Virus record (IMG/VR): IMGVR_UViG_3300017766_003354
Coordinates: 1 to 64,000 of that record
DNA from: a virus
Strand: one strand, 5' to 3'
Length of the DNA stretch: 64,000 bases
Shown one piece after another: positions 3,020 through 59,358 of the stretch (its first letter is position 1; every line of letters begins with the position of its first letter). The translations under genes and the position numbers were made by a program. Below the pieces are notes generated by a model. That model searched no databases. It was not told where the DNA came from and saw only the letters and a program-made list of their open reading frames with translations.

Positions 3020-3063
3020 GTCAACATAAATTACACTAAAAAATCTTTGTTTACCAAAAAAGT

Positions 3064-16327: not shown

Positions 16328-16630
16328 TCACAACGCCCTGAATTGGCGAATAGAGTCGTCGTATTTTTTTTGTTCTTTTTTTCTCTGCTTGAACAGTTCG
16401 GCATCATAATAAACCTCAAATTGATCATCTCCTAGACGATCATCAATCCAAATAGGAGCACCAAAAAAGTAATCCTGCGATCTAAAATAGTTGGCGGCTA
16501 CGCTTGAACTCTTTTCGCACTCGTCTCTTAGCCTCTGACGCATCAAAGAATTGCAGAATATGCCCAAAAGAGGTTTTTCTTTTGGCAACCGCAGTCTTGC
16601 GGCATCCATTGCTTCTAGGAGATTGTCCAT
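16328..16630 (-). CDS. hypothetical protein, paralog of the N-terminal part of 21404-22168
   Basis: MDNLLEAMDAARLRLPK...FFGAPIWIDDRLG. Confidence 0.75.
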   Translation of the reverse strand: MDNLLEAMDAARLRLPKEKPLLGIFCNSLMRQRLRDECEKSSSVAANYFRSQDYFFGAPIWIDDRLGDDQFEVYYDAELFKQRKKEQKKYDDSIRQFRAL

Positions 16631-17640
16631 TAGAGTTTTGAGATTTGAGTCTGAAACCACCTTGCCGCTTTCTTAGAGACTGCTGCGCCGAATTCTTTTC
16701 GGGAAATATCAGAGGCTCGAATTGAGTCTCCTTCTTCTTCCCACGCATCATCAATTAGCAAACAAATAAAGTTTTTGATGTTTTGCGGCACCTTGTCTTC
16801 CTCGCATTTTACAACCTTGTCGAAGATTTGGGCCATTCTGTCTTCATGGCAGTAGGTCTCGACGCACTCTTGAATGGAATCAAGACGTTGAACGTCAACG
16901 GTTGGCATCTTTTTGATCTTGAACTCGGAATGTCGAGCGTCTTTAATTTTAAATGCCATGTCAAATCCAAACTGTCCAGCTTGAGAAGCCACAAAACCTT
17001 CTCCTACGCCCGAAACACCGAAAGTCTTAGCGAACGGACACTCTAATCCAATTTGATCGGCCCACACGCTCATTTGGTCGATCATTTTGTCTGGGCGATT
17101 TAGATCGACTTCAAATTCAAAAACTGGAGCGCGATTAATGTGATAGATCCCCAATTCTTCATTGCGAATTTCTGAAGAGTCAATCCATTCAGAAGAATCG
17201 TCCTCAAAGATCAACTTCGCGCCAAAAACGATCATCATTTTGGGCAATTGATTCATTGCGACCCCCTTTTGAATCGACCCTCCCGCCCACTCGGAAAAAA
17301 TAACACAATGTTTTACTCCATCAACGAACTTATCTTTAATCTTGTCAAAAATTTTGTGTCCATCTTTATATGCAAAGTGCGCGGAACCCGCGTTGTCTTT
17401 AACTTCGTCAATAATGTTTTCCCTAGACTGAGCGTAAAAAGAACCATCTTTAGAGAACACCAAAGAAAAATTAGTCCCATGGATTTTGCAACGACCGACA
17501 AATTTTAAGATAGGCCAGACAGCAGGCTCTTGGTAAATGGGATTTCCGTCTCCATCTTTCCCTGCATAAGAAAGACGTAATTTTAAATCTCTCAAAACCT
17601 GATGGTATTGACGGATCTTAGGGAACGAGTAATGCTTCAT
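16630..17640 (-). CDS. rnl2: RNA ligase, Rnl2 family
   Basis: KIHGTNF (motif I), QSRENII, FSEWAG, GEGFV, FKIK. Confidence 0.85.
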   Translation of the reverse strand: MKHYSFPKIRQYHQVLRDLKLRLSYAGKDGDGNPIYQEPAVWPILKFVGRCKIHGTNFSLVFSKDGSFYAQSRENIIDEVKDNAGSAHFAYKDGHKIFDKIKDKFVDGVKHCVIFSEWAGGSIQKGVAMNQLPKMMIVFGAKLIFEDDSSEWIDSSEIRNEELGIYHINRAPVFEFEVDLNRPDKMIDQMSVWADQIGLECPFAKTFGVSGVGEGFVASQAGQFGFDMAFKIKDARHSEFKIKKMPTVDVQRLDSIQECVETYCHEDRMAQIFDKVVKCEEDKVPQNIKNFICLLIDDAWEEEGDSIRASDISRKEFGAAVSKKAARWFQTQISKL

Positions 17641-18655
17641 TTTGATTCTGTTGTTGGTTGCGCGTTAGTCTCCATTTTTTTCTCGCTAATGTCAAGGGAA
17701 ATCGAGAAACTTCCAATTGATATTCTTGTTGTAAGAAATCGCAAATTTTTTGCAAAGACACCCCTTGTTCAAAAAGCTCTTCGCACTTTAACCTTACTTC
17801 ATTGTTGATTTTCTTGCGCAAATCTACTCGGTCTATTAGGCTGTTCTCAAAAGCTAATTCAAACCGTTCTTTTTTGCGTGACAAAGAAAAAGAGTTTTCG
17901 CTATCTGCATACAGCCATTCATACATTTTTCTTATTGATTCTTTTGATTCGCAAGTGATGGCGGTTGACGCTGATATTTTCGAGTAATTATATTTGTGTA
18001 GTTTGACGCCCGACTTTTGATAGATTAAATCAATAAAATCTTGAGCCACTTCTTTATTAACGCAGAGAGAGAAAAAATAGTTGTGCCTTGTCTTGTTGGA
18101 CTGAGTGGTTATACATCCATCCCCATCAAAATACCCTCTCATAAAATGATTGCTATAAGGACCATAAGCAACTGGCGGCAATTTAAAATTATAGGTTTTA
18201 TTCGGAATAACCCCATTATTTATAAGGTCTTCCCCCATCGTGTTGTTCCTAATGTCCACCCTACAATAAAATCCATCTTTGTTTTTAGGGGTTTTCTTGG
18301 AATAGAAACGGATATTCCCATTAAACTCCAGTTCTTTTTTTAAAAATTCCAAAAACTCAACATCTTGTTGTTGTATTTCCACCCTCAAGTTCCACGCTTT
18401 CTTTTCGAAACGAATACAGCCATCAGCAGATAAAAACCCTAAAATATATGCTTGGTTTGCACACTCTTTTTTAAAATAATCTTCGTTTAGACTGAACTGC
18501 TTGCCCCCTCGCCATTTGACATGAGGATTCTTTTTGATCCAATAACGAAGCTTTATGAGGTCTAAGGAATAAAAGTTAGCTAGGTCTTTTAACTTTTCAT
18601 AGTTATTGTATTTGTCTATGATTTCTTTTTGAAGTGTTGGATGTAGGTTTCTCAC
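17618..18655 (-). CDS. LAGLIDADG homing endonuclease (double motif)
   Basis: AYILGFLSADGCI and FMRGYFDGDGCI. Confidence 0.92.
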   Translation of the reverse strand: MRNLHPTLQKEIIDKYNNYEKLKDLANFYSLDLIKLRYWIKKNPHVKWRGGKQFSLNEDYFKKECANQAYILGFLSADGCIRFEKKAWNLRVEIQQQDVEFLEFLKKELEFNGNIRFYSKKTPKNKDGFYCRVDIRNNTMGEDLINNGVIPNKTYNFKLPPVAYGPYSNHFMRGYFDGDGCITTQSNKTRHNYFFSLCVNKEVAQDFIDLIYQKSGVKLHKYNYSKISASTAITCESKESIRKMYEWLYADSENSFSLSRKKERFELAFENSLIDRVDLRKKINNEVRLKCEELFEQGVSLQKICDFLQQEYQLEVSRFPLTLARKKWRLTRNQQQNQNEALLVP

Positions 18656-26480: not shown

Positions 26481-26521
26481 TGTAATAAGCAGAAATTAGA
26501 GTTCTAGTGTAATATTTTTAT

Positions 26522-48807: not shown

Positions 48808-49323
48808 ATGACAACACACTACGAAAAAATGCGTTCATTTTGCACTTCTTGGACTGACGACCATATTAAAGGGTTCTTTGGGTGGAGTGCTGATGAATAT
48901 GGGTTTCTAAGTAATTTCCATCGCTGCGATGTAGTCTTTGAAGGAGAGCTTTACCCTTCTTCAGAAAACGCATATATGGCGGCAAAAACAACCGATGAAA
49001 ATATTCGAATTAAATTCCAAGACTGGAACTTTTCTTCTGCTGAAGCTAAGAAATTGGGACAGTCTATTCAATTGAGACCCCATTGGGAAGAATTGAAGTT
49101 GGAGATTATGAGTTCTATTGTAGAAGACAAGTTCCGCCGCAATTTAGATATCCAACAAAGGCTTTTAGATACTGGCGATAAATACTTGGAAGAAACAAAC
49201 TGGTGGAATGACCGATTTTGGGGTGTTGACTATCGCAGTGGCGAAGGAGAAAATCACTTGGGCAAAATTTTAATGAAAGTAAGGAAAAAGATCCGAAATG
49301 AACTACAAGAAAGAACAATTTGA
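48808..49323 (+). CDS. NADAR family protein
   Basis: FLSNF, SSENAYMAAK, AKKLG, KF..N..L..LL.TG...LEE...DRFWG...GENHLGKILMKVR. Confidence 0.9.
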   Translation: MTTHYEKMRSFCTSWTDDHIKGFFGWSADEYGFLSNFHRCDVVFEGELYPSSENAYMAAKTTDENIRIKFQDWNFSSAEAKKLGQSIQLRPHWEELKLEIMSSIVEDKFRRNLDIQQRLLDTGDKYLEETNWWNDRFWGVDYRSGEGENHLGKILMKVRKKIRNELQERTI

Positions 49324-49438
49324 CTTCCGATTGAAGCACCTATATTCTGAACTCCGAGCAGCAAACCTCGGTGATAAGCATTTTTGGGTGCATCAGATTA
49401 ATTTGTTTTTAGATTCAGCACCGAAATTTTAAAAAAAT

Positions 49439-49612
49439 ATGAAAGACGAAGAAAAAATAGAAATACTGGCCGATCTTCTTAATCAATGTCTTGAGTGTTG
49501 CAACCAAGAACGAAGTTTCGAAGTGAAGGGAATAATTGATGGCAAATTTGTTGTTGCTTTTGATATTGTTGAAATTAAAGAAGACGATTATATTGGATTC
49601 GCTGGATATTAA
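49439..49612 (+). CDS. small hypothetical protein, paralog of 55721-55933
   Basis: LLNQCLECCNQERSFEVKGI...FDIVEI...GY. Confidence 0.6.
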   Translation: MKDEEKIEILADLLNQCLECCNQERSFEVKGIIDGKFVVAFDIVEIKEDDYIGFAGY

Positions 49613-50395
49613 AATTATGAAACCAAAACAATCGCCCTTATCTTTCGTTGAGAGCGGCAAATATTTGCCTGAATTTATGCGAGATTTTCACGATCAAAAA
49701 AATCTCTTTAAACTGATTCACAATACCTATTCTCAAGACAACAAAAACGCTAACTTATATCCTGACTGGATTAAAGCTCATTGTTATACGATTGATTGGT
49801 TTTTGTGGTTTATGGGTCAAAGGGGCTATACGCTTCAGAAAAATAGATCGAATGTCGAATTTAAGCCTTTGCTTTTGAAATAATATGGACAACTTGAATG
49901 ACTTAGAACAAATCCTCGATACGATGATTTCCAAGCAGAAAGAAAAGAAGACAAAAACTTTTGTTGCCCGTTATAAGGGGAAAAACTTGATAATGCGCTC
50001 TGGCAAAAGTAGTTGGAAGCAAACAAATTACGCCAAATCTTCAATTATTCAGCATTTTTGCGGCCCTGAAAGGCGTTATGTTTATCCTGTAGATTGGAAT
50101 AAATTGGGTGAAACCGCAGAAGACCGTAAAAAAAGAAAAGAAGAATTCCGAAAAAAGCTTTTTGAATTGATTGAAATTGTAGAATTAACAGAATGACAAC
50201 AAAACAATTAAAACTATCTCTTGATTTGGAAGTTCTTGAATATGCAATCGAAATTTGTCAACTCAGCAAGAGTAACCTTAAAAAAGACGGCTGGAATGCC
50301 GCTTGTGAAAATATTGAGTGTTTTCTCCAAGCGGCAAAAGAAAGATTGCAAATGGGCCTTGATCTTCGGGATTATGCCGTGACTCAATAATTAAT

Positions 50396-50968
50396 ATGAA
50401 CGCAGTAACCGCAAACACAAAAACAACTTTGCTTCTTAATAATGCTTGGCAGCCAATTACGGTTGTCACGGCACGGGCGGCATTTCAGCATTTGCACAAG
50501 AGAAGAATCTCTGCATTGGATAAAGACAGCAATATCTTTCATTCTTTGGACTCTTGGAATACTTTGGGGGTTTATTACGATGATCAGCCGTTTCTAAGAA
50601 GTGCTCATGCTGCTTGGCCGATTCCTACTGTAATCGTAGTAAATAGTAAATTCTTCAGAAAGCCGAAAAAGAGCAAACTAACTCTTTTTGATCTAGCGAA
50701 ACTGTGCGATTATACTTGCCAGTATTGCTTTGAAAAGTTTCCGATCAAGCAATTAAGTATTGACCACGTAAACCCTCGATCACGCGGAGGCGAAGACACT
50801 CATGATAACCGCGTGCTATCGTGTGTGCGCTGTAATCGCGCAAAAAGTAATTTTACTCCATGGCTAGATAAAAACGGCAAAATTCCAACCCCACCGTCGA
50901 TCCCCGCGTTGATGTTGAATGCGGAAAAAATTCGTCCCGAATGGAATAGTTTTGTGAATAATCATTAA
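50396..50968 (+). CDS. HNH endonuclease (McrA-like/HNH_5 type)
   Basis: TLLLN..WQPI, P.VI, CQYC, SIDHVNPRSRGG...N.V.SC..CN..K. Confidence 0.88.
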   Translation: MNAVTANTKTTLLLNNAWQPITVVTARAAFQHLHKRRISALDKDSNIFHSLDSWNTLGVYYDDQPFLRSAHAAWPIPTVIVVNSKFFRKPKKSKLTLFDLAKLCDYTCQYCFEKFPIKQLSIDHVNPRSRGGEDTHDNRVLSCVRCNRAKSNFTPWLDKNGKIPTPPSIPALMLNAEKIRPEWNSFVNNH

Positions 50969-51116
50969 TTTATTGAATTTTATTTTTCCCATTTGATAAT
51001 CCTGTGTAAGAAACAAAGAACATGCGATATTTTATTTCAACACTCTGCCCGAAATCCGCCCAAAATTGGGAGGATGGAGTGTAAGTTGGGGTCAAATAAA
51101 GTTTTCTTCTTTTTGG

Positions 51117-51143
51117 CCCAGCACTCAAAACGCTGGGTTTTTT
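51117..51143 (+). terminator. intrinsic terminator after a 20-codon mini-ORF
   Basis: CCCAGC actcaaaac GCTGGG TTTTTT. Confidence 0.75.
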
Positions 51144-51172
51144 GTTAATCTGAAAAATTTCTCAAAAACAGG

Positions 51173-51200
51173 TTGACAAAATCCGAAAATCAAGTAAGTT
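51173..51200 (+). promoter_or_regulatory. promoter heading the tRNA array
   Basis: TTGACA-N16-TAAGTT. Confidence 0.7.
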
Positions 51201-51217
51201 CCTCTCAGACAAAACAA

Positions 51218-51410
51218 ATCCGCTCGCAAGACGAAAGTTTTAAGAGTGGCCGTGACGGTGGAAATGGTTCGGCCCCACCCCTTGAGGTTTAAAAAGCCTT
51301 CGGGATCGAGATTTTCTCTGGCAATCTTTCCGCTTGCCAATCGAGGAGCCATCCTTGAGAAAGTTTTATTCTTCTTGAGTCTTCACAAATTCGAAGAAAA
51401 GACAGCGGAT
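51218..51410 (+). ncRNA. candidate structured ncRNA at the 5' end of the tRNA array
   Basis: ATCCGCT/AGCGGAT closing helix, internal hairpins, no credible ORF. Confidence 0.4.
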
Positions 51411-51533
51411 CGGTTTTTGGCTCTTGACAATAGCTGGTGATTCGGCAACGATACGGAACCTTAGCGAACACTGGCGGAACTAGACGAATTAATCACTCGT
51501 TATAACTGCTGGTTAGTAGCTTAAATTTTCAAT

Positions 51534-51608
51534 GGTGCTATAGTTTAAAAGTAAGAACTCCTGACTTTCAATCAGAGGATCTCGGAGCGTTACCGAGTAG
51601 CACTTCCA
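51534..51608 (+). tRNA. tRNA-Glu(TTC)
   Basis: cloverleaf, GGTGCTA/TAGCACT, CCA; atypical T loop. Confidence 0.85.
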
Positions 51609-51616
51609 TTTTTTAT

Positions 51617-51692
51617 CAGGGTATGGTGTAACTTGGTAGCACGATACATTTGGGATGTATTAGTTTCGGCTCAAATCCGAATATCCTGACCA
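51617..51692 (+). tRNA. tRNA-Pro(TGG)
   Basis: cloverleaf, CCA. Confidence 0.9.
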
Positions 51693-51705
51693 ATTTATAA
51701 ATTCA

Positions 51706-51881
51706 GACAAAGGGGCAGTTCGAATCTGCGGTATTCCTTGAGGATATAAGGTGTAATGGATGCACGTTGTCGCAAATTCTTGAGGATCGGTTCGATTCCG
51801 ATATTGGTGTAACGGTAGCACGCAAGCAACACCCTAAGAACGGTTCGATTCCGTATAAATAGTGTAACGGCAGCACGGGGG
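51706..51881 (+). ncRNA. three tandem circularly permuted tRNA-elbow (T-arm then D-arm) modules
   Basis: GTTCGA T-arms at 51715, 51786, 51840, each followed by a GTGTAA.GG..GCAC D-arm and closed by its own short stem. Confidence 0.7.
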
Positions 51882-51892
51882 CAATTTTCAAT

Positions 51893-51969
51893 AGCGCGGA
51901 GGACAAGAAGGTTAGTCACTAGGCTCATAACCTAGGTTCTGGTGGATTCGAGCGCCACCTGCGCAACCA
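51893..51969 (+). tRNA. tRNA-Met(CAT), 1:72 mismatch (initiator-like)
   Basis: CTAGG CT CAT AA CCTAG, CCA. Confidence 0.8.
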
Positions 51970-51977
51970 TTTTCAAT

Positions 51978-52053
51978 TGGACAGCAAGCATATAAGTGTG
52001 CAAGAGTCTCATACGCTCTCATCGTATCGGTGCAATTCCGATCTGTCCTACCA
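51978..52053 (+). tRNA. tRNA(CAT) Met or Ile2
   Basis: AGAGT CT CAT AC GCTCT, CCA. Confidence 0.8.
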
Positions 52054-52153
52054 ATTTTCGCTGCATATCAATAAACGAATTCGCGATTAGTTTTTTGAGA
52101 AGGTGGAATGGGTTGGGCTAAAGCAAATGACCAACCGCAGCGATTAATTCAAA

Positions 52154-52206
52154 CGCCTCCTGCTGGCTAGCGCATCGGGATCATGACCTGATATGGGAGG
52201 CGACCA
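52154..52206 (+). ncRNA. 53-nt T-armless mini-tRNA-like RNA with CAT loop and ACCA end
   Basis: CGCCTCC/GGAGGCG-ACCA; TCGGG AT CAT GA CCTGA. Confidence 0.55.
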
Positions 52207-52219
52207 ATTTATACATCTT

Positions 52220-52288
52220 GAAGAAGACTGGTTCGAATCCAGCGCAACTACCCGTAGGTGGGCGCGTAGTGTAATGGCAGCACACTTC
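52220..52288 (+). ncRNA. single permuted tRNA-elbow module (YrlA-like topology)
   Basis: GAAG-aaga-CTGGTTCGAATCCAG-hairpin-TAGTGTAATGGCAGCAC-a-CTTC. Confidence 0.65.
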
Positions 52289-52300
52289 TATTGTTTTTAT

Positions 52301-52383
52301 GTGAGTCTAAAGCTAGTGGCTCTAGCAAGAAGTCTGTAAAACTTCTCCTTCGGGGCGAGGATCGAAACCTCAGACTCACACCA
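52301..52383 (+). tRNA. tRNA-Tyr(GTA)
   Basis: cloverleaf with variable arm, CCA. Confidence 0.85.
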
Positions 52384-52530
52384 CTTTTTGCTAAAGCATC
52401 TTTGGCTTGATGCTGTCCCACAGGACTATATCGCATAACCTACGAACAAAGGCCAAGTTCTATAGGGGTATAGCGGGAAACCCGATCAAGTCGGGTGAGG
52501 CGGTTCAATTCCGCAGGCAAAATTTTTAAT

Positions 52531-52605
52531 GGCCCGTTCGTTTAGTGTAAAGGACCGCGTGCTTCTAACGCGCAGACAGAGGTTAGATTCCTCTACGGGC
52601 TACCA
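52531..52605 (+). tRNA. tRNA-Arg(TCT)
   Basis: cloverleaf, CCA. Confidence 0.9.
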
Positions 52606-52611
52606 ATTTAT

Positions 52612-52699
52612 GGAACATTAACCCCTGAGCTTGGGGCGTGTCTTGGAAAGACAATGGCGGCTGAAAGGTCGTGGGCTTGGAGTGCTCAGTGTTCCTCCA
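52612..52699 (+). tRNA. tRNA-Ser(GGA)
   Basis: long variable arm, CCA, atypical T loop. Confidence 0.75.
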
Positions 52700-52704
52700 C
52701 TTTT

Positions 52705-52795
52705 GGATTGTTAATTCAGACGGCTCTGAACGCTGTTTCGAAAGCAGTTGGTTCCGCAAAAACGGGATAGGGATCGACCCCCTAGCAATCCTCCA
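52705..52795 (+). tRNA. tRNA-Ser(CGA)
   Basis: long variable arm, CCA. Confidence 0.8.
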
Positions 52796-52797
52796 AT

Positions 52798-52889
52798 GGG
52801 TAATTTATCGCAACGGCTTGCGACTCTGCTTTGAAACCAGATGATGGGGTTAGTAGCCTCATAGGGATCGACACCCTAGTTGCCCTCCA
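52798..52889 (+). tRNA. tRNA-Ser(TGA)
   Basis: long variable arm, CCA. Confidence 0.8.
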
Positions 52890-52987
52890 CTTTTAGCCAG
52901 TAAAACCGTCAAAAAAGTCATTGACAAAATCGTGACAAGCGACTAGGATTGTGGCGCAACGCAAGACTAGCTGGTTAATTCTTCAAA

Positions 52988-53064
52988 ACACCATCAGACT
53001 GTGGGCAAGTCGAGAACCCTCCAAAAGTTCTGCTTAAAGGATTCGATTTCCTTGTGGTGTGCCA
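52988..53064 (+). tRNA. tRNA-Trp(CCA)
   Basis: cloverleaf, G73, CCA. Confidence 0.85.
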
Positions 53065-53072
53065 ATTTTAAT

Positions 53073-53143
53073 GACCTGATGATGTAACGACAGCATACTG
53101 CGCGGGAGCGTAGAAGAGGGGCTAGAATCCCCAACGGTCGCTA
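53073..53143 (+). ncRNA. tRNA-like RNA with the anticodon loop replaced by a GGGA tetraloop (pseudo-tRNA or decoy)
   Basis: D arm ATGT..GCAT, CTGCGC GGGA GCGTAG, T arm GGGG CTAGAAT CCCC, ends GCTA. Confidence 0.55.
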
Positions 53144-53152
53144 ATTTTCAAT

Positions 53153-53237
53153 GGGCGTGTGAGAGAATGGTTATCTAGCGGTCTTTTAAACCGAGGGCGA
53201 AAGCCCAACGTGGGTTCAATCCCCACCGCGCCTACCA
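53153..53237 (+). tRNA. tRNA-Lys(TTT) with long variable arm
   Basis: GCGGT CT TTT AA ACCGA; GGGC GAAA GCCC arm; CCA. Confidence 0.85.
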
Positions 53238-53243
53238 ATTTTA

Positions 53244-53330
53244 GCAAGTGTGACAGAATGATCATGTATCCGTCTCTTAAACGGCAGAGAGAAATCTCTA
53301 ATGTGGGTTTGAATCCCACCGCTTGCACCA
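53244..53330 (+). tRNA. tRNA-Lys(CTT) with long variable arm
   Basis: CCGT CT CTT AA ACGG; AGAG AAAT CTCT arm; CCA. Confidence 0.85.
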
Positions 53331-53341
53331 AAATTTTTCAT

Positions 53342-53431
53342 AGTATAGTGGCGGAATTGGAAGACGCGCTCGCCTGTTAAGTGAGAGTTCCGAAAGGACA
53401 CCTGTAGGATCGTGGCCTACCTATACTGCCA
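53342..53431 (+). tRNA. tRNA-Asn(GTT) on a Leu-like class II body
   Basis: GTGGCGGAATTGGAAGACGC D region, long variable arm, G73, CCA. Confidence 0.8.
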
Positions 53432-53437
53432 ATTTTT

Positions 53438-53513
53438 CCTGTCTGAGCAAGTCTGGTGATTGCGCTTGGTTGAAGCCCAAGTTAATCGTGTTCGATCCAC
53501 GGAGACAGGACCA
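53438..53513 (+). tRNA. tRNA-Phe(GAA)
   Basis: CTTGG TT GAA GC CCAAG, CCA. Confidence 0.85.
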
Positions 53514-53635
53514 TTTCAATGAGCGGCGTATGACAGCCTTTCAACGCTTAAATCATATCTGCGTTGGAGCCCAAGAAAATAAGCTGAATAACTACGAGGT
53601 ATCCCGCTCACCCTTTTCTAGCAAGTGTCGCATAG

Positions 53636-54133
53636 TCATTTGCGTTTACCTGAAAACGTCAAAGTTTGCGAATGACAATTTGGACAAAGAAACCTTAAAT
53701 TACTCAAGCGATTATCATTATTAATTCCATTGATGTGATCTAATTGTAGAGAAAGCGGTTTATTATTGTAGGTTCCTTGATTGCCGCATTCAGCGCATTC
53801 ATACTTCCAACCAAAATCTTGTAATAAACGACTTTTTATATTGTTGCCACTAACATAAGAAGAGTTTTCCACAAAAATATCTTCATTGTCTCGCTTGTTA
53901 ATTGGGCTTAACTTCTTTGCTTGTTCTTGTTTAAAGTTCTTCTTGTTGGCAGTAAAAAGAGTTAAGTCAAAATTTTCTTCCTTGATTCGTTTTTTAATTG
54001 TCCTGTGGTTTCCATTATAACCACCAAAACCTAATTTCTTTAAAATTTCGACAATAGACGAGCTTTCATTTAATAACCTTTGAAAATCATCGAAACTCGT
54101 TGTCCACACTATACTTTTTCTCGTAATCTTCAT
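53636..54133 (-). CDS. HNH homing endonuclease in the tRNA array
   Basis: CAECG...LQLDHINGINNDNRLSNLRFLCPNCHSQT; start ATG 54133. Confidence 0.92.
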   Translation of the reverse strand: MKITRKSIVWTTSFDDFQRLLNESSSIVEILKKLGFGGYNGNHRTIKKRIKEENFDLTLFTANKKNFKQEQAKKLSPINKRDNEDIFVENSSYVSGNNIKSRLLQDFGWKYECAECGNQGTYNNKPLSLQLDHINGINNDNRLSNLRFLCPNCHSQTLTFSGKRK

Positions 54134-54174
54134 GTGGTATATTACACATAAAGACACAATACGGGACTTTTCAT

Positions 54175-54250
54175 GCGTCATTCGCCTAATGGTATGGCAC
54201 TTCGCTTCCAACGAAGAACAGCATCAGTTCGATTCTGATATGGCGCACCA
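54175..54250 (+). tRNA. tRNA-Gly(TCC)
   Basis: cloverleaf, A73, CCA. Confidence 0.9.
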
Positions 54251-54253
54251 ATT

Positions 54254-54438
54254 TTCTATCAAAACCCTGAAAAGGTGGCGAAGTTTGTAAGCCAGTCATG
54301 GAAAGGCGCTAGGTGGGTCAAAGAATAAAGTTGGGAAACCTTAATCGGCGTGAAACCCGAACGTGCCTAGTAGCCCATGCGGAGTCACTATCTAAACCTC
54401 ACTCTGTCAAGAGTAAGTTGCGGACTCTATTGATAGAA
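54254..54438 (+). ncRNA. ~185-nt unknown multi-helix RNA
   Basis: TTCTATCAA/TTGATAGAA closing stem; CATGG/CCATG, CTAGG/CCTAG, GAGTC/GACTC helices. Confidence 0.55.
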
Positions 54439-54445
54439 TTTTTAT

Positions 54446-54522
54446 CCGAGAGTAGATTTAACTGGCAAAATCCCTCCCTGTGAAGGAGCCTAATGCGGGT
54501 TCGACTCCCGCCTCGCGGACCA
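54446..54522 (+). tRNA. tRNA-His(GTG), A73, no encoded G-1
   Basis: CTCC CT GTG AA GGAG, GTTCGA T loop, CCA. Confidence 0.85.
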
Positions 54523-54588
54523 TTTCTTTCTTGACAGTCGATTGGACGCCTCTTAATATGCGAACCAGCCAATCGCTTCCCTTTTAAT

Positions 54589-54765
54589 ATGAACACCCCA
54601 AACAACAAAGCCCTAGAAGTGCGCCGAACAAATCAAAAATTCCGCCGACTTTTCAATAGCTCGAAAGACATTGGGGGCAAGCTTTCTTCTTTGCACGTCA
54701 ATCGCGCCCATTGGGGCTCTGGATACAGTAAAAAAGACTTGCCAAAAGATTCGGATATGCAATAA
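54589..54765 (+). CDS. 58-aa basic hypothetical protein in the tRNA array
   Basis: ORF after TTGACA-N17-TAATAT promoter. Confidence 0.5.
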   Translation: MNTPNNKALEVRRTNQKFRRLFNSSKDIGGKLSSLHVNRAHWGSGYSKKDLPKDSDMQ

Positions 54766-54772
54766 TTTCAAT

Positions 54773-54845
54773 CGGGGTGGAGCAGTAAGGTAGATGCAAC
54801 CTGCTCATAACGGGTAAATAGCGGGTTCGAGTCCCGTCGCCCCCA
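54773..54845 (+). tRNA. tRNA(CAT), 1:72 mismatch, CCA not encoded
   Basis: ACCTG CT CAT AA CGGGT; GCGGG TTCGAGT CCCGT. Confidence 0.8.
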
Positions 54846-55200
54846 TTAAGCTCGTATCATGTATTTCCATGTGGCAATTAGAACAAAGAAGATCACATTT
54901 CTTAAACTCCAACAAAATCTTCTCCCAGCCTTGATTTGATAATTTTCTCAAATCTAAAGTAAAAGACTTTTCTTTTGGATTCCTATGGTGAAAACATAAA
55001 GCCCTCAAGCTTTTTGAGTATCCACAAATTTGACATCCTCCACCAGACATTTCAATCAAAAGCCTTTTTCTTTCGTTACCTTTTTTGTTTTGGTTTGCGT
55101 AATTTTGATGGTTCTTATTGGATAAGTGATTTTTACATTTTTGAGAACACCATTTTCTTTGACCTCCAGTTAATTCTTTATTACAGTTTTGACAGTTCAT
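54805..55200 (-). CDS. HNH endonuclease with N-terminal Zn finger; 3' end overlaps the tRNA antisense
   Basis: CQNC...WCSQKC; CQICGY...LCFHHRNP..K..C.LLCSNCH. Confidence 0.88.
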   Translation of the reverse strand: MNCQNCNKELTGGQRKWCSQKCKNHLSNKNHQNYANQNKKGNERKRLLIEMSGGGCQICGYSKSLRALCFHHRNPKEKSFTLDLRKLSNQGWEKILLEFKKCDLLCSNCHMEIHDTSLMGATGLEPAIYPL

Positions 55201-55252
55201 ATTAAATGATTACACTCAGATTATGAATATAGTCATAATCTTTTATTTTTAT

Positions 55253-55332
55253 GCAGCAGTATTCCCTCTCCCTACGAAGGAGGTGAAAGGATAATTGGAT
55301 ACATGTAGGTTCGATGCCTATCTGCTGCACCA
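55253..55332 (+). tRNA. D-armless tRNA-Arg(ACG)-like RNA
   Basis: GCAGCAG/CTGCTGC-ACCA, TCTCC CT ACG AA GGAGG, T arm, ~7-nt D replacement, long variable region. Confidence 0.7.
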
Positions 55333-55342
55333 ATTTTCAAAT

Positions 55343-55418
55343 GGCCCTATAGCTGAGTAGGATTTAGCACATGCTTGATAAGCGTGAGACACAGGTTCAA
55401 TCCCTGTTAGGGCTACCA
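55343..55418 (+). tRNA. tRNA-Ile(GAT)
   Basis: cloverleaf, CCA. Confidence 0.9.
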
Positions 55419-55498
55419 TTTTTACTTATTACGAAGAATCTAAAATAGCTGGCATTGTGACCGCTTGAAGTAGTCGGTAGTAAGTAACTAATTTTTAT

Positions 55499-55592
55499 GG
55501 GTCATGGGGCTGCTTGGGGTGGCCATCTCACTTGCAATGAGAAGACATATCGAAAGATATACAGTTGGGTTCAAATCCCAAATGATCCACCA
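55499..55592 (+). tRNA. tRNA-Ala(TGC) with long variable arm
   Basis: G3:U70 present; ATATC GAAA GATAT arm; CCA. Confidence 0.88.
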
Positions 55593-55602
55593 GTTTCAAA
55601 AA

Positions 55603-55678
55603 GCATCGTTGGCTCGACTGTTTAGGCGGGTTCCTGCAAAGTTCCTTTAAGGGGGTTAGATTCCCTCACGATGCTCCA
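55603..55678 (+). tRNA. tRNA-Cys(GCA)
   Basis: U73, CCA; anticodon stem has T-T mismatches. Confidence 0.82.
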
Positions 55679-55720
55679 ATTTTCTCTTGACTTTCTCTGT
55701 TCTTTTGCTAAAAACAAAAC

Positions 55721-55933
55721 ATGACAGCAGAACATCTACAAGAACAAGACGAAATGCACGAAGCGCAGAAACAACAAGTGATCATCGAATCTCTTTCTTC
55801 TCTGCTAAGTGAATGTTTAGAATCAATGAACCAAGATAACTCGTTCAAAGTTCTCGGTATTGAAAATAACAAGTTGATTGTTGAATTTGATATTGTGGAA
55901 ATTGATGATGAGTTTATGTTTCAAGGATATTAA
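55721..55933 (+). CDS. hypothetical acidic protein in the tRNA array
   Basis: ORF with TTGACT promoter; paralog at 49439. Confidence 0.7.
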   Translation: MTAEHLQEQDEMHEAQKQQVIIESLSSLLSECLESMNQDNSFKVLGIENNKLIVEFDIVEIDDEFMFQGY

Positions 55934-56042
55934 TTTCAAATAATGAGCGCCCAAAAGCAAAACGGACTATTTGTGCATCTAGGCACAGGATCGGGGTCTT
56001 GGCGACTTACTCGCCAGTAGTATTGCTCATTGCCTTTTTAAT

Positions 56043-56116
56043 GGGGGATTGATGTAATGGTAGCCTGACTGATTTACATTCAGTTTGCGGGGATTCGACT
56101 TCCTCATCCCCTACCA
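56043..56116 (+). tRNA. tRNA-Val(TAC)
   Basis: cloverleaf, CCA. Confidence 0.88.
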
Positions 56117-56124
56117 ATTTTTAT

Positions 56125-56209
56125 GGTAACGAAGCCGAAGTGGTTTCAGGCGCTACCCTGTCAAGGTAGGAACGAAAGTTCATAGCGAGTTCGATCCTCG
56201 TCGTTACCG
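56125..56209 (+). tRNA. tRNA-Asp(GTC) with variable arm
   Basis: CTACC CT GTC AA GGTAG; GAAC GAAA GTTC arm; G73. Confidence 0.85.
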
Positions 56210-56219
56210 CCCTTTTCAT

Positions 56220-56297
56220 GCATCAGTATGCTATTGGTATCGCAGCAACGTCGAGAGCGTTGTGTTTTTGTCGGTTCGACTCCGATCTGATGCACCA
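56220..56297 (+). tRNA. tRNA-Leu(GAG), short variable loop, C33
   Basis: CAACG TC GAG AG CGTTG; CCA. Confidence 0.75.
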
Positions 56298-56306
56298 AAT
56301 TTTTAT

Positions 56307-56391
56307 CGGCGCGTGGGTTAATCGAGAACGGCAGATCACAGATACTTAGAATATCTGACCCTTGGAGGTTCAATTCCTCTCGCGCCGACCA
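56307..56391 (+). tRNA. tRNA-Leu(TAG), enlarged D loop, no variable arm
   Basis: CAGATA CT TAG AA TATCTG; CCA. Confidence 0.8.
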
Positions 56392-56398
56392 TTTTTTA

Positions 56399-56480
56399 CG
56401 GCATGTGGGTTAATCGGGAATAGCAGACTACACTTACTCAAAATAAGTGACCCTTGAAGGTGCAAGTCCTTTCATGCCGA
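56399..56480 (+). tRNA. tRNA-Leu(CAA), paralog of the previous tRNA
   Basis: CACTTA CT CAA AA TAAGTG; CCA not encoded. Confidence 0.78.
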
Positions 56481-56491
56481 CTTTTTTTAAT

Positions 56492-56577
56492 GGTATAGTG
56501 GATAAGCGAAATTGGCGACAAGCGAAAGATTTAAAATCTTTTATCCTCTGTGGGTTCGAATCCCACCTATACTACCA
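56492..56577 (+). tRNA. tRNA-Leu(TAA)
   Basis: AAAGA TT TAA AA TCTTT; GTTCGAATC; CCA. Confidence 0.82.
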
Positions 56578-56583
56578 ATTCAT

Positions 56584-56669
56584 GGATCGTAAATCAACAA
56601 GGCGTTGACTCTTCCTGCTAAGAAGGTGGAGGTTTAAAAAACCTTTCAGTTCAAATCTGATGCGATCCT
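56584..56669 (+). tRNA. tRNA-Ser(GCT)
   Basis: long variable arm; CCA not encoded. Confidence 0.8.
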
Positions 56670-56706
56670 CTCTTCCCTCTCTTGACTCATTCGTGTAAAG
56701 AGAAAT

Positions 56707-57117
56707 GTGACTGTAAATGATAAAGGAAATATTGGGTTGACTAAAGTAATGTCTGATTTAACTGAAAAGGGTTATTCGGTTTTTTTACCGATAGCAGATA
56801 CTAGTTGCGTAGATTTAATTGCGGCTGACGAAGGAATGAATATAAAAAAGATACAAATTAAATATCGCAAAGTTAATAAATTCGGAGTGATTTGTGTTCA
56901 AACTCGCTCTGTTGTCAACGGAAAAAGTATCCCCATTCCTTTAGAACAAATTGATCTTTGGGCTATCTATTGCCCCGATACAAAGCAAATTTATTATTTA
57001 TCTTCTGATATTTTGAAAGGAAAGTCTGTTCTTTCTTTGCGGGTAGATAAAGAAGTAAGAAAATGCGAACAAACAACTTTCGCAGACCAATTCACCGATA
57101 TTAAGAAAGTTTGGTGA
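56707..57117 (+). CDS. PD-(D/E)XK homing-type endonuclease (group I intron-associated family), free-standing
   Basis: KGNIG...L..KGYSVFLP....VDLI...KKIQIKY...IDLWAIYCP. Confidence 0.85.
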   Translation: MTVNDKGNIGLTKVMSDLTEKGYSVFLPIADTSCVDLIAADEGMNIKKIQIKYRKVNKFGVICVQTRSVVNGKSIPIPLEQIDLWAIYCPDTKQIYYLSSDILKGKSVLSLRVDKEVRKCEQTTFADQFTDIKKVW

Positions 57118-57143
57118 TTGTCATTAAAACTTTAAATTTCCCA

Positions 57144-57217
57144 GCCTTCATAGTTCAATGGTAGAACTTCAGTTTTGTAATCTGAAAACCCCAGTTCGAT
57201 TCTGGGTGTCGGCTCCA
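57144..57217 (+). tRNA. tRNA-Thr(TGT)
   Basis: cloverleaf, CCA. Confidence 0.88.
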
Positions 57218-57223
57218 CTTTCT

Positions 57224-57297
57224 GGTCTATTCGTCTAGTGATAGGACTCTCCCCTCGTAAGGTAGAAGCGGGTGTTTGATCCACCCATAGACCTCCA
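57224..57297 (+). tRNA. tRNA-Thr(CGT)
   Basis: cloverleaf, CCA. Confidence 0.78.
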
Positions 57298-57303
57298 GTT
57301 TTA

Positions 57304-57382
57304 GCGAATGTCGCATAGTGGCCTATTGCACTACATTGCCAATGTAGAATAAACGCAGGTTCAAATCCTGTCATTCGCACCA
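57304..57382 (+). tRNA. tRNA-Gly(GCC)
   Basis: cloverleaf, A73, CCA. Confidence 0.9.
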
Positions 57383-57390
57383 ATTTCAAC

Positions 57391-57465
57391 GGACCATAAG
57401 CTTTGATGTTGAAGCCCTTCTTGGTATGAAGGAAGAACGCAGTTAGAATCTGCGGTGGTCCTCCA
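57391..57465 (+). tRNA. tRNA-Thr(GGT)
   Basis: cloverleaf, CCA. Confidence 0.82.
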
Positions 57466-57517
57466 CTTTCTAGAAATTTTCTGTTGACTCATTGATAAAA
57501 ATCCCTATACTGCTGCC

Positions 57518-58723
57518 ATGCAAGTAATAAAAAACATCCCTGTCTGGGGAGAAGTTCAAGAAAATGCGGTTGATCAAATGGCTAACGCTCTTAATTGTGG
57601 AGCTTATAAGGCTGCTTTGATGGGGGATCATCATTTGGGCTATTCTGTTCCTGTAGGGGGAGTTATCGCTTATAAGAATGCTATTTCTCCTTCTGGTGTT
57701 GGATTTGATATTGCTTGCGGCAATAAAGCAGTTCTTACTGATGCTTTTCTTCCTGACGTTCTTCCATTTATTGAAAAAATAATGGATGATGTTTTTCGCA
57801 ACATTTCTTTCGGAATTGGAAGAGTTTCAAACTCAAAACATATTGTTGGTCAAAAAGACCCAAGTGATCACCCCTTGTTTAATGACGAAGCTTGGAATAT
57901 TCCTGCAATTTCTGGATACAAAGACTTGGCCCGAAATCAACTAGGAACAGTTGGTTCTGGCAATCACTATGTTGATATATTTGCCGATAATTTTGGTCGT
58001 ATTTGGATTGGAGTCCACTTTGGTTCTCGCGGATTAGGACACAAAACAGCTTCTCATTACATTAAAGAAGGCGGTGGAACAGACGGAATGTTTGTTAATC
58101 CTGTTGTTCTTGATGCTGATTCAGAATTGGGTAAAGAATATATTGCTGCAATGAATCTTGCTGGACGATATGCCTATGCTGGTCGTGATTGGGTTTGCGA
58201 AGAAGTCGCTCGTATCTTGGGGGCTAATATTTTAGACTCTGTTCATAATCATCATAACTTCGCTTGGCTCGAAAACCATGAAGGAGAAGATCTGTGGGTA
58301 GTCCGCAAAGGAGCAACTCCAGCTTTCCCAAATCAAAAAGGATTCGTTGGAGGAACGATGGGCGAAAATTCTGTAATCTTAGAAGGAATTAATCATCTAG
58401 AATGCAAAACTTCTTTATATTCTACTGTCCACGGAGCAGGTCGCGTTATGTCACGAACTGAAGCTGCGGGCAAATCAAAATGGAAACAAGGAAAGAAAAC
58501 CCGTATTTCTGAAGGCAAAGTTTCTCAAGAAATGATGAATGATTGGATTTCTAAAAAGGGAGTCTGCCTTCGTGGCGCGGGGGTTGATGAATCTCCTCAT
58601 TGCTATAAAAGACTTGACGAAGTTCTTGAAGCCCACACAAATACAATTAAAATCTTACATAGTCTGACTCCTATCGGTGTCGCAATGGCAGGAAATGAAG
58701 TTTTCGACCCATATAAAGATTAG
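57518..58723 (+). CDS. rtcB: RtcB 3'-phosphate/5'-OH RNA ligase
   Basis: DHHLGY.VPVGGV, VGFDIACG, LGTVGSGNHY, VHFGSRGLG, HNHHN, VRKGATPA, HGAGR, DESP..YK. Confidence 0.95.
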   Translation: MQVIKNIPVWGEVQENAVDQMANALNCGAYKAALMGDHHLGYSVPVGGVIAYKNAISPSGVGFDIACGNKAVLTDAFLPDVLPFIEKIMDDVFRNISFGIGRVSNSKHIVGQKDPSDHPLFNDEAWNIPAISGYKDLARNQLGTVGSGNHYVDIFADNFGRIWIGVHFGSRGLGHKTASHYIKEGGGTDGMFVNPVVLDADSELGKEYIAAMNLAGRYAYAGRDWVCEEVARILGANILDSVHNHHNFAWLENHEGEDLWVVRKGATPAFPNQKGFVGGTMGENSVILEGINHLECKTSLYSTVHGAGRVMSRTEAAGKSKWKQGKKTRISEGKVSQEMMNDWISKKGVCLRGAGVDESPHCYKRLDEVLEAHTNTIKILHSLTPIGVAMAGNEVFDPYKD

Positions 58724-58742
58724 TCTAGTTAAAACACCCATA

Positions 58743-58795
58743 GCCCCGCAGCTTTATTCTTCTACGGAGGATTAAACGCTCGCGGGGCATTTTTT
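58743..58795 (+). terminator. terminator-like hairpin after rtcB
   Basis: GCCCCGC...GCGGGGC ATTTTTT. Confidence 0.65.
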
Positions 58796-58845
58796 ATTGA
58801 AAATTCAATAAATTTCGGGTGTAAGAAAGGGTAGTTCTCCTTAAA

Positions 58846-59358
58846 ATGACTTCCCCCGAATTAAACGACATAATCATTACTGTTGCCTCTCAACTTCTTA
58901 TCGTTGGAACTGGATTAATCGCGGCTTATTTTAAATTGCGATCAGAAGTCCAAGCAAAAATCAGCGAAGTCAAAACTCATACCGATGTCACCCTTCAAAA
59001 ATTAAATGGAATGTTGACTTACGTTATCCATTCCTTTGACCGTCCTGCTTGGATTAAAATTGCCACGCAGAGACAAGACGGAGAAGTAGAATTTAGAATG
59101 CTAGAGTTGAATGACTTATATACCGAAACATTTGGGATTTCTCGACACGACTATTTGGGTAAAACAGATTTAGAAGTTGGATGGGATAAAGCGACTTCTG
59201 AAAGAATGAGGAATCACGATTTGCAAGTTTGGGCTTCTGGAGAACCAGCAACTTTTGAAGAGCAAGTTTCTGGAAACAATCTTAAATTCCGAAAAATTCG
59301 TGTTCAATCTCCAAACGGAACTTTAAAAGGTGTTATGGGATATTGCGTGAATTCTTGA
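58846..59358 (+). CDS. membrane-anchored PAS-domain protein
   Basis: N-terminal TM; PAWIK...N..Y..FG....YLGKTD..W......D..V...G....FEE...K.......GVMG. Confidence 0.7.
   Translation: MTSPELNDIIITVASQLLIVGTGLIAAYFKLRSEVQAKISEVKTHTDVTLQKLNGMLTYVIHSFDRPAWIKIATQRQDGEVEFRMLELNDLYTETFGISRHDYLGKTDLEVGWDKATSERMRNHDLQVWASGEPATFEEQVSGNNLKFRKIRVQSPNGTLKGVMGYCVNS

Follow-up and report, generated by a model that had tools for sequence, protein, structure and literature searches.

The window considered here is the first 64 kilobases (kb) of the virus record IMGVR_UViG_3300017766_003354 in IMG/VR, a complete record of 146.9 kb with terminal repeats. Within it, a compact leader cassette lies downstream of a + strand operon whose last gene is an HNH gene (50396-50968) and upstream of a transfer RNA (tRNA) gene array that starts at 51534. 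The cassette consists of a leader promoter (P1), a GTGTAA box, a short open reading frame (ORF), two overlapping hairpins that correspond to an antiterminator and a terminator, and a second promoter (P2), which a spacer separates from the first tRNA gene. All coordinates are positions in the window, on the + strand unless stated, and related viruses are labelled with L-numbers. An initial, sequence-only reading of this region had proposed an attenuator-like leader, whose peptide samples nearly every tRNA species and could thereby sense the depletion of any host tRNA through ribosome stalling, leading to read-through into the phage tRNA array.

The leader ORF (51022-51084) comprises 20 codons and a TAA stop codon and, as direct reading bears out, specifies 19 kinds of amino acid. 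Ser occurs twice, His is absent, and all other kinds occur once. With at most two codons for any one amino acid, the window's leader has no cluster of codons for a sensed amino acid. The probability of such a composition, which the sequence-only reading had left to be calculated, is far below chance. Among the 54,011 stop-free 20-residue segments of the 64-kb window, a single one contains at least 19 kinds, and this is the leader ORF itself; the same holds when all six frames of the 146.9-kb genome are considered (1 of 125,450). An independent-residue model failed to match the leader's variety in any of 2 million draws, and nucleotide shuffling of the ORF yields 19 kinds in just 0.005% of trials.

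Beyond the ORF, the sequence-only reading had placed a terminator near 51117-51143, the 5′ strand of which could alternatively pair with upstream sequence, and both features were recovered. The intrinsic terminator (51115-51143) is built from a stem of 8 base pairs (51115-51122/51132-51139) with the core CCCAGC/GCTGGG, a loop of 9 nucleotides (nt), and a T-run at 51138-51143; a simple terminator scan missed it because the scan allows loops of at most 8 nt. The antiterminator hairpin (51085-51122) has its 5′ arm at 51085-51096, 1 nt past the stop codon, and its 3′ arm at 51112-51122. The latter contains the terminator 5′ arm, and the two structures are mutually exclusive. In the minimum-energy fold of 51004-51150 (-42.2 kcal/mol, z-score -2.67), 51085-51096 pairs with 51112-51122, which corresponds to the antiterminator instead of the terminator. 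Two further helices involve the ORF itself. An outer helix (51028-51098) joins ORF codons 3-6 (51028-51039) to the post-stop segment 51087-98; in the modelled folds it may compete with the antiterminator when the ORF is free of ribosomes, and it is the least secure of the helices. Codons 7-20 form a hairpin inside the ORF (51040-51082), a candidate RNA polymerase pause hairpin.

Judged by sequence comparison, the cassette is present before the tRNA arrays of at least 10 diverged relatives, beyond chance. These share one order of elements, namely P1, GTGTAA, an ORF of 20-21 or 31 codons, antiterminator, terminator, P2, spacer, and tRNAs. The stop codon lies 46-50 nt before the terminator 3′ arm in every member, including the 31-codon subfamily and L464, and the leader frame and stop position are kept across all members. 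L098, a syntenic 137-kb NCBI contig, was found by an RtcB protein search (73% identity in RtcB). It presents an HNH gene, GTGTAA, a 21-codon ORF (19 kinds, no Cys), the alternative arm, the terminator, GTTGACAAA, and tRNA-Glu in succession, followed by 25 tRNAs and a transfer-messenger RNA (tmRNA), and then RtcB. A pattern combining the terminator 3′ arm with the P2 box, applied to IMG/VR and JGI metagenomes, led to L102, the L104 group (L104, L112, L124, L138, L150, L208, and L219), L206/L215, and a second subfamily (B; L099, L100, L106, L107, and L140) that carries an unrelated 31-codon ORF and has tRNA-Gln as its first gene. The mini-ORF is found in exactly 17 of the 126 matches to this pattern, those with a same-strand tRNA gene within 1.5 kb. 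L243 was found by a second pattern, GTGT...ATGMGATATTTTA, and synteny of the upstream HNH gene added L460, L461, and L464 as members. Two further contigs, L463 and L467, possess the HNH gene, the promoter, and the tRNAs, yet are without the leader cassette.

Other routes to relatives were less productive. The second pattern returned mostly chance matches, and a 30-residue match that recurred among them turned out to be the C-terminal end of a longer gene. A nucleotide search with 50396-51700 against phage GenBank records gave no match, the exact leader 29-mer was not found in IMG/VR, and 80 RtcB-based IMG/VR loci were not syntenic and had no leader DNA in common. A pattern of T-run plus P2 produced no new members among the IMG/VR matches listed, nor did the terminator plus P2 pattern in GTDB genomes, and a polymerase-based locus search yielded one relative at 41%. 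Among the members, L461 (complete, 147.7 kb) is distinctive in that a 57-codon ORF with a lipoprotein-like N-terminus lies between its promoter/GTGTAA and its leader ORF (L461:3067-3280), which makes the leader a second cistron that starts 8 nt past the stop of the 57-codon ORF.

Variety of amino acids is widespread in the family. Beside the 19 kinds in 20 codons of the window, the leaders use 16-17 kinds in 20 codons in the L104 group, 19 in 21 in L098, 18 in 21 in L460, 17 in 21 in L461, 16 in 21 in both L102 and L206, 15 in 21 in L243, 12 in 21 in L464, and 19 in 31 in the L099 group. Shuffling predicts 12.7-13.1 kinds (standard deviation 1.44) for leaders of 20-21 codons and, for the 31-codon L099 leader, about 15.4. 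Read in its other two frames, the leader DNA specifies 10-16 kinds; the excess variety is thus confined to the ORF frame and is no by-product of base composition or RNA structure. Where a one-of-each composition had been expected of homologous leaders, nine lineages show high variety, with 15-19 kinds versus about 13 predicted by chance, and the 12 kinds of L464 are average. As such, "one of each" is a tendency and no family rule.

This variety has persisted while the peptides themselves changed. The leader peptides are poorly conserved, with 4-14 of about 20 positions identical between lineages. Neutral drift over the 11-12 positions that differ between the window and L098 predicts about 13.3-13.4 kinds, whereas 19 are seen in both (P < 1e-4); the same test gives P of about 1e-3 for L460 and L461, and for the L104 group drift could account for the change (P 0.29). 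Variety above neutral drift suggests that it is actively kept in several lineages, although not universally, given the ordinary L464. The absent amino acid also varies, being His in the window, Cys in L098, and Leu in L099. It does not track the tRNA sets, since the phage that lacks a His codon in its leader has a tRNA-His. The amino acids of the leader fall within the set served by the array in L098 (19/19) and, with relaxed tRNA calls, in L464 (12/12), a relation that is trivial because the arrays are near-complete.

The alternative RNA structures are likewise conserved. Pairs were counted on two MAFFT alignments, A2 and A3, with slid structures as controls. On A2, in every sequence of which the leader ATG is kept, the terminated conformation is paired in 85% of cells (slid controls 35-48%), with 10 pairs changed on both sides, and the antiterminator in 87.5% (controls at most 65%), with 2 such pairs. 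On A3, the antiterminator is paired in 80.4% of cells (controls at most 64%; 3 pairs changed on both sides) and the terminator in 86% (controls at most 59%; 2 pairs). The antiterminator covariation score was reached by 0 of 500 shuffles on either alignment. Covariation is densest in the ORF-internal hairpin, where 7 of 14 pairs have changed on both sides; the outer helix pairs in 86.7% of A2 cells and has 3 pairs changed on both sides. Duplex z-scores relative to shuffles are -4 to -5 for the terminator in all members and -1.2 to -3.1 for the antiterminator in most. Compensatory changes in the terminator include G-C to A-U in L460 and L461 and C-G to A-U in L099. L460 further exhibits a triple change. 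At A3 column 48, a terminator base, it has a G, and the two partners of this base, column 24 in the antiterminator and column 70 in the terminator, are both C in L460 and T in most other members. At the sequence level, this is the signature expected of a two-state switch.

In the window, the fold energies are -11.4 kcal/mol for the nascent antiterminator and -12.0 kcal/mol for the terminator. Folds of nascent RNA that end at the terminator 5′ arm adopt the antiterminator in 8/8 lineages (-9.7 to -16.4 kcal/mol), and the terminator energies of the eight lineages range from -11.7 to -16.9 kcal/mol. When the full-length RNA is folded free of ribosomes, all eight sequences form the terminator together with a helix between ORF codons 2-6 and the post-stop segment. 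Masking a ribosome, with a footprint size taken from general knowledge, changes the predicted outcome according to its position: a ribosome with the stop codon in its A site leaves the terminator in 8/8 lineages, and a stall at codon 4 or 8 leaves the antiterminator in 6/8.

The cassette contains two promoters. P1 (50973-51000; TTGAAT, 16 nt, GATAAT) is sigma70-like and scores 9 of 12 in a promoter scan. Its layout of TTGAAA, 16-17 nt, TAnnAT, 3 nt, and GTGTAA is kept in L104, L112, L124, L102, L206, L243, L098, L460, and L461, and the -35 box of members often overlaps the end of the HNH gene. P2 (51173-51200), the promoter of the tRNA array, lies 24-25 nt after the terminator in members. For the sigma70 promoter that had been noticed past the terminator, the -35 element stands, with an exact TTGACA at 51173 and a box, GTTGACAAA, that is invariant in all relatives with the cassette, but the -10 element of the window, TAAGTT after 16 nt, is weak and falls below the scan threshold. 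The P2 -10 element is TATAAT in L099/L107 and TATAGT in L102, L206, and L243. P2 is apparently a basal, unconditional promoter.

The GTGTAA box that had been read at 51004 is indeed present (51004-51009), 12 nt before the leader ATG, and is conserved in the relatives. Across the genome this hexamer is under-represented (54 copies vs about 94 expected), and 26 of the 54 copies precede the ATG of a long ORF by 11-30 nt (mostly 14-17); in the window, such gene-start sites are found at 26507, 45852, 58819, 61562, and 62025 on the + strand and at 3036, 29783, 54147, and 55215 on the - strand. The genome also encodes a sigma70-family protein (Sigma70_r2, genome positions 136770-136910), and GTGTAA is probably a one-box promoter that the phage's own sigma factor recognizes. 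Its position suggests that messages driven by it would have almost no leader. Since the box precedes the leader at the spacing of real genes, it lends further support to the leader being expressed as a gene. In members, a 9-12 nt A-rich untranslated stretch without a Shine-Dalgarno sequence separates GTGTAA from the ORF. This is normal here, as Shine-Dalgarno sequences precede 8% of the phage's long ORFs compared with 9% of random positions. A role for GTGTAA as a Shine-Dalgarno substitute was considered and rejected, because the phage has a sigma factor and the P1 -10 element places the start of host polymerase inside the motif. The upstream regions of phage genes are generally A-rich and devoid of Shine-Dalgarno sequences, yet the tRNA promoters are of the canonical sigma70 type, a combination that constrains the identity of the host.

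Taken together, the cassette presents the organization of an attenuator. A short ORF in the 5′ leader lies upstream of a terminator and on the same strand as the tRNA genes; an antiterminator shares bases with the terminator 5′ arm, as seen in the folds, in covariation, and in the triple change of L460; and a ribosome at the end of the leader masks the antiterminator 5′ arm in the masked folds of 8/8 lineages. We propose, with a probability of roughly 0.6, that the cassette acts, ahead of the tRNA array, as a ribosome-mediated transcription attenuator of the leader-peptide type, which senses general decoding capacity. Leader translation, footprint geometry, pausing, read-through that is conditional, and the signal sensed are components that we infer. 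Translation finds indirect support in the conserved ATG, frame, and stop position, in the variety confined to the ORF frame, and in the GTGTAA gene-start signal. Transcription would start at P1 and/or the GTGTAA element, and the 20-codon leader would be translated while RNA polymerase proceeds. A ribosome that reaches the stop codon would cover 51085-51096 and prevent its pairing with 51112-51122, which would allow the terminator to fold and end the transcript at about 51143. A ribosome held inside the leader would leave 51085-51096 free, so that the antiterminator forms first and transcription continues past P2 into the array. In the absence of any ribosome, pairing between the beginning of the ORF and the post-stop segment may restore termination. 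Read-through from P1/GTGTAA would thus add conditionally to basal transcription from P2.

Because most leaders devote each codon to a different amino acid, too little of nearly any charged tRNA, or generally slow decoding, is predicted to raise read-through. The downstream genes, about 30 tRNAs followed by the RtcB RNA ligase, include the very molecules that a leader ribosome consumes. The evidence is compatible with a sensor of host tRNA depletion as well as with one of general decoding capacity, and the leader may monitor the tRNAs of the host, of the phage, or of both. A more elaborate scheme is possible, although we regard it as speculative and would sooner doubt than adopt it. In this scheme, the leader is a pan-amino-acid, global gauge of charged-tRNA supply; once, late in infection, the phage sigma factor (acting at GTGTAA promoters) replaces host sigma70, P2 would fall silent and the leader would become the only entry into the array, with tRNA synthesis turned on when tRNA-cleaving defences or starvation stall ribosomes.

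A number of observations weigh against the proposed attenuator or narrow its reach. L464 keeps the architecture yet has an ordinary composition (P 0.83), and the variety of L243 is not significant taken alone. The leader codons are not distinguished by the tRNAs available to read them: under strict wobble, the phages' own tRNAs read 15/20, 20/21, 17/21, and 18/21 of the codons compared with usage-weighted background fractions of 0.69-0.81 (P 0.07-0.39), a comparison of low power with near-complete arrays. On the structural side, L098 and the L124 variant keep the terminator as the minimum-energy structure despite a stalled ribosome, antitermination for stalls at codons 12-15 assumes that the outer helix cannot close around the ribosome, and the duplex z-scores of that helix, which joins the start of the ORF to the post-stop segment, are weak. 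Covariation was drawn from 8-11 sequences, four of them close relatives, with structures derived from one member. The promoters raise a separate difficulty. A conserved P2 between the terminator and the first tRNA means that the array can be expressed without read-through, and P2 alone, without the leader cassette, precedes the arrays of L463 and L467. Given other promoter-like sites inside the tRNA array and before rtcB, the attenuator may govern only the first tRNA block. The core of the leader originally envisaged is supported by the cassette order, helix covariation, stop geometry, and frame-specific variety across relatives, comparative evidence to which the sequence-only reading had no access; the one-of-each rule and a sole dependence on read-through do not hold up.

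Several of these points would be accommodated if the cassette were the same attenuator but read the closeness of ribosomes to RNA polymerase, not the supply of tRNA. Its signals would then be ribosome availability, host shut-off, translation inhibitors, or the host-to-phage sigma switch, and amino-acid variety would have no role, or none beyond keeping the leader from being sensitive to one particular amino acid. The simplest reading of the folds, in which a ribosome at the stop codon causes termination and anything else causes read-through, agrees with such a sensor of coupling, as do the cassette of ordinary composition in L464, the lack of a special match between leader codons and phage anticodons, and the compound P1 and GTGTAA promoter, which suggests stage-dependent use. 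Antibiotic-responsive leader attenuators such as bmrCD are known to work so (PMC4191407). Nonetheless, if composition did not matter, it would be difficult to account for a frame-specific variety that at least four lineages have maintained despite heavy sequence turnover, and the controlled genes are tRNAs; we consider a pure coupling sensor unlikely.

Two other explanations dispense with attenuation altogether. The cassette might be a self-contained small gene, producing a short RNA and/or a micropeptide that acts in trans, with the alternative pairing affecting only the folding or stability of its own RNA. It has its own promoter, an efficient-looking terminator, and P2 thereafter, the L461 ORF is a second cistron behind a 57-amino-acid ORF, and leader-derived RNAs and peptides can act in trans elsewhere (PMC7298713, PMC7968998). 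This would be an improbable gene, however, as the low identity between leader peptides is joined by the lack of a conserved hydrophobic or charged pattern beyond the N-terminal residues, which also form an RNA helix, and the cassette occurs only at the head of tRNA arrays. Moreover, the fixed spacing of 46-50 nt and the overlapping antiterminator and terminator arms are needed by an attenuator, not by a simple gene. The terminator could also belong to the HNH gene as an ordinary end-of-operon element, with the open frame due to chance, considering that it lies about 150 nt past the HNH stop codon (50968) and that the upstream genes are on the same strand. A conserved promoter between that stop codon and the ORF, the maintenance of ORF, frame, and stop position in at least 10 diverged relatives, including a subfamily of unrelated sequence, and a composition that is unique among the 125,450 segments of the genome make this hardly credible; a plain operon terminator is excluded insofar as comparative sequence data can do so.

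The proposed attenuator is best appreciated alongside known systems. Classical leader-peptide attenuators include trpL, hisL, leuL, and pheL, as well as the multivalent thrL and ilvGMEDA leaders. Attenuation of amino-acid operons has been modelled (PMC1183508). As proposed here, the phage cassette resembles the trp/his-type attenuators in having its own promoter, a short leader ORF, and exclusive antiterminator and terminator hairpins between which the position of the leader ribosome decides. A third pairing, which may reinstate termination when the leader is not translated, and a hairpin at which the polymerase could pause add to the resemblance. Unlike these attenuators, the cassette has no run of cognate codons and displays near-maximal variety instead; it would control phage tRNA genes rather than biosynthetic enzymes, has a second promoter past the terminator, and lacks a Shine-Dalgarno sequence. 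A second group of attenuators answers to inhibition of translation in general, as exemplified by the Bacillus subtilis bmrCD leader (PMC4191407) and the macrolide-responsive mef/mel leader (PMC4335068). With these the cassette would share the principle that a stall anywhere in a short leader favours the antiterminator, the signal being the state of translation. The bmrCD and mef/mel leaders respond to ribosome-targeting drugs and control resistance genes; by contrast, the output of the phage cassette is a tRNA array, and its composition is apparently selected for amino-acid variety. T-box riboswitches, which occur in the leaders of Gram-positive aminoacyl-tRNA synthetase and amino-acid genes, bind one uncharged tRNA and do not require leader translation. 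Like them, the cassette as proposed here would couple tRNA charging status to the choice between antiterminator and terminator before translation-related genes. The T-box covariance model of Rfam matched neither 49000-59000 (E up to 1) nor L098, L102, or L104.

To our knowledge, the regulation of phage tRNA arrays is essentially uncharted. Such arrays are seen as answers to codon-usage mismatch and to tRNA-cleaving defences such as PARIS, retrons, and type III CRISPR effectors (PMC12409363, PMC12916289, PMC13462974). Full-text searches of the literature found no published description of an attenuator before phage tRNA genes. The present case contributes a pan-amino-acid leader together with a near-complete array, and a family with measurable selection on leader composition. 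If the proposed attenuator is correct, it would constitute a feedback loop on translation capacity itself, in which the leader ribosome tests nearly every amino acid and gates tRNA transcription, and would widen the logic of classic attenuation from individual amino acids to the tRNA pool as a whole. The family also supplies natural controls for comparison, with L464 as a member of ordinary composition and L463 and L467 as relatives without the cassette.

The spacer between P2 and the array (51201-51533), which would also be the 5′ leader of the tRNA precursor, is variable, and its modules are shared patchily with relatives. It had been described as an ORF-free, structured region of about 300 nt, and neither attribute survived closer analysis. 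The fold of 51200-51533 has a z-score of -0.93, with 17 of 100 shuffles folding as well (the opposite strand gives +1.55), and mechanically called ORFs of 39-75 amino acids are found on both strands. The spacer is a mosaic, no more stable than shuffled sequence, and ranges from 69 to 361 nt among relatives. A search of 49000-59000 against Rfam at E up to 1, along with L098, L102, and L104, matched only tRNAs in 49000-59000 and nothing in the leader or spacer. One spacer module (51414-51532) is found again, 95-99% identical and with different sequence before it, in contigs from two further metagenome runs, and L460 also has a related module. A conserved AAATTTTCAAA-like stretch (51523-51533) stands right before the first tRNA in all subfamily A members, possibly as a signal for processing or as a small RNA module.

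The first tRNA, tRNA-Glu (anticodon TTC, 51534-51608), is the first gene past the cassette in all subfamily A relatives. Default ARAGORN settings find 18 tRNAs in the array, and relaxed settings and Rfam add about ten; the added genes include Met (two), Tyr, Ser (three), Cys, and Val (two) tRNAs in 51693-52530 and 53153-56670. The gap at 51693-51890 contains tRNA-like T-arm and D-arm fragments. Short contigs from two wastewater libraries that are labelled RNA-Seq and flagged as probable DNA span 51746-51895, differing from the window at 1 and 4 letters, and also cover tRNA-Pro. The tRNAs of L098 cover all 20 amino acids, and its tmRNA gene (L098:6448-6795, 95 bits) lies inside the array. Within the array of L102, 8454-8577 matches the Y-RNA-like YrlA family below threshold (38 bits vs a gathering score of 69). 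In the window, the array runs to just before the RtcB ligase gene at 57518.

The wider neighbourhood is rich in RNA-related genes. An RNA ligase gene lies next to a LAGLIDADG endonuclease (16630-18655), a NADAR-domain gene (48808-49323) lies 2 kb upstream of the leader, and the RtcB gene (57518-58723) directly follows the tRNA array. The RNA ligase, NADAR, and RtcB genes point to a heavy investment in RNA repair and in measures against RNA- or ADP-ribose-based defence. The HNH gene (50396-50968) is kept in position ahead of tRNA arrays in eight IMG/VR contigs (L460-L467) at 53-81% identity, and its L098 counterpart is at 1806-2414. Its presence even in relatives that lack the leader cassette makes it look like a fixed part of the tRNA region and not a mobile homing endonuclease. 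All GenBank phage matches to the DnaE-type polymerase are below 31% identity and, by this divergence, the phage is a new lineage. Sample names and the source run point to freshwater as its habitat. Among the sequencing runs listed, none of them an RNA run, the probable source run alone contains the whole stretch, and contigs of four other runs match only fragments of it; one 151-nt DNA contig covers 50996-51144 with 6 differences.

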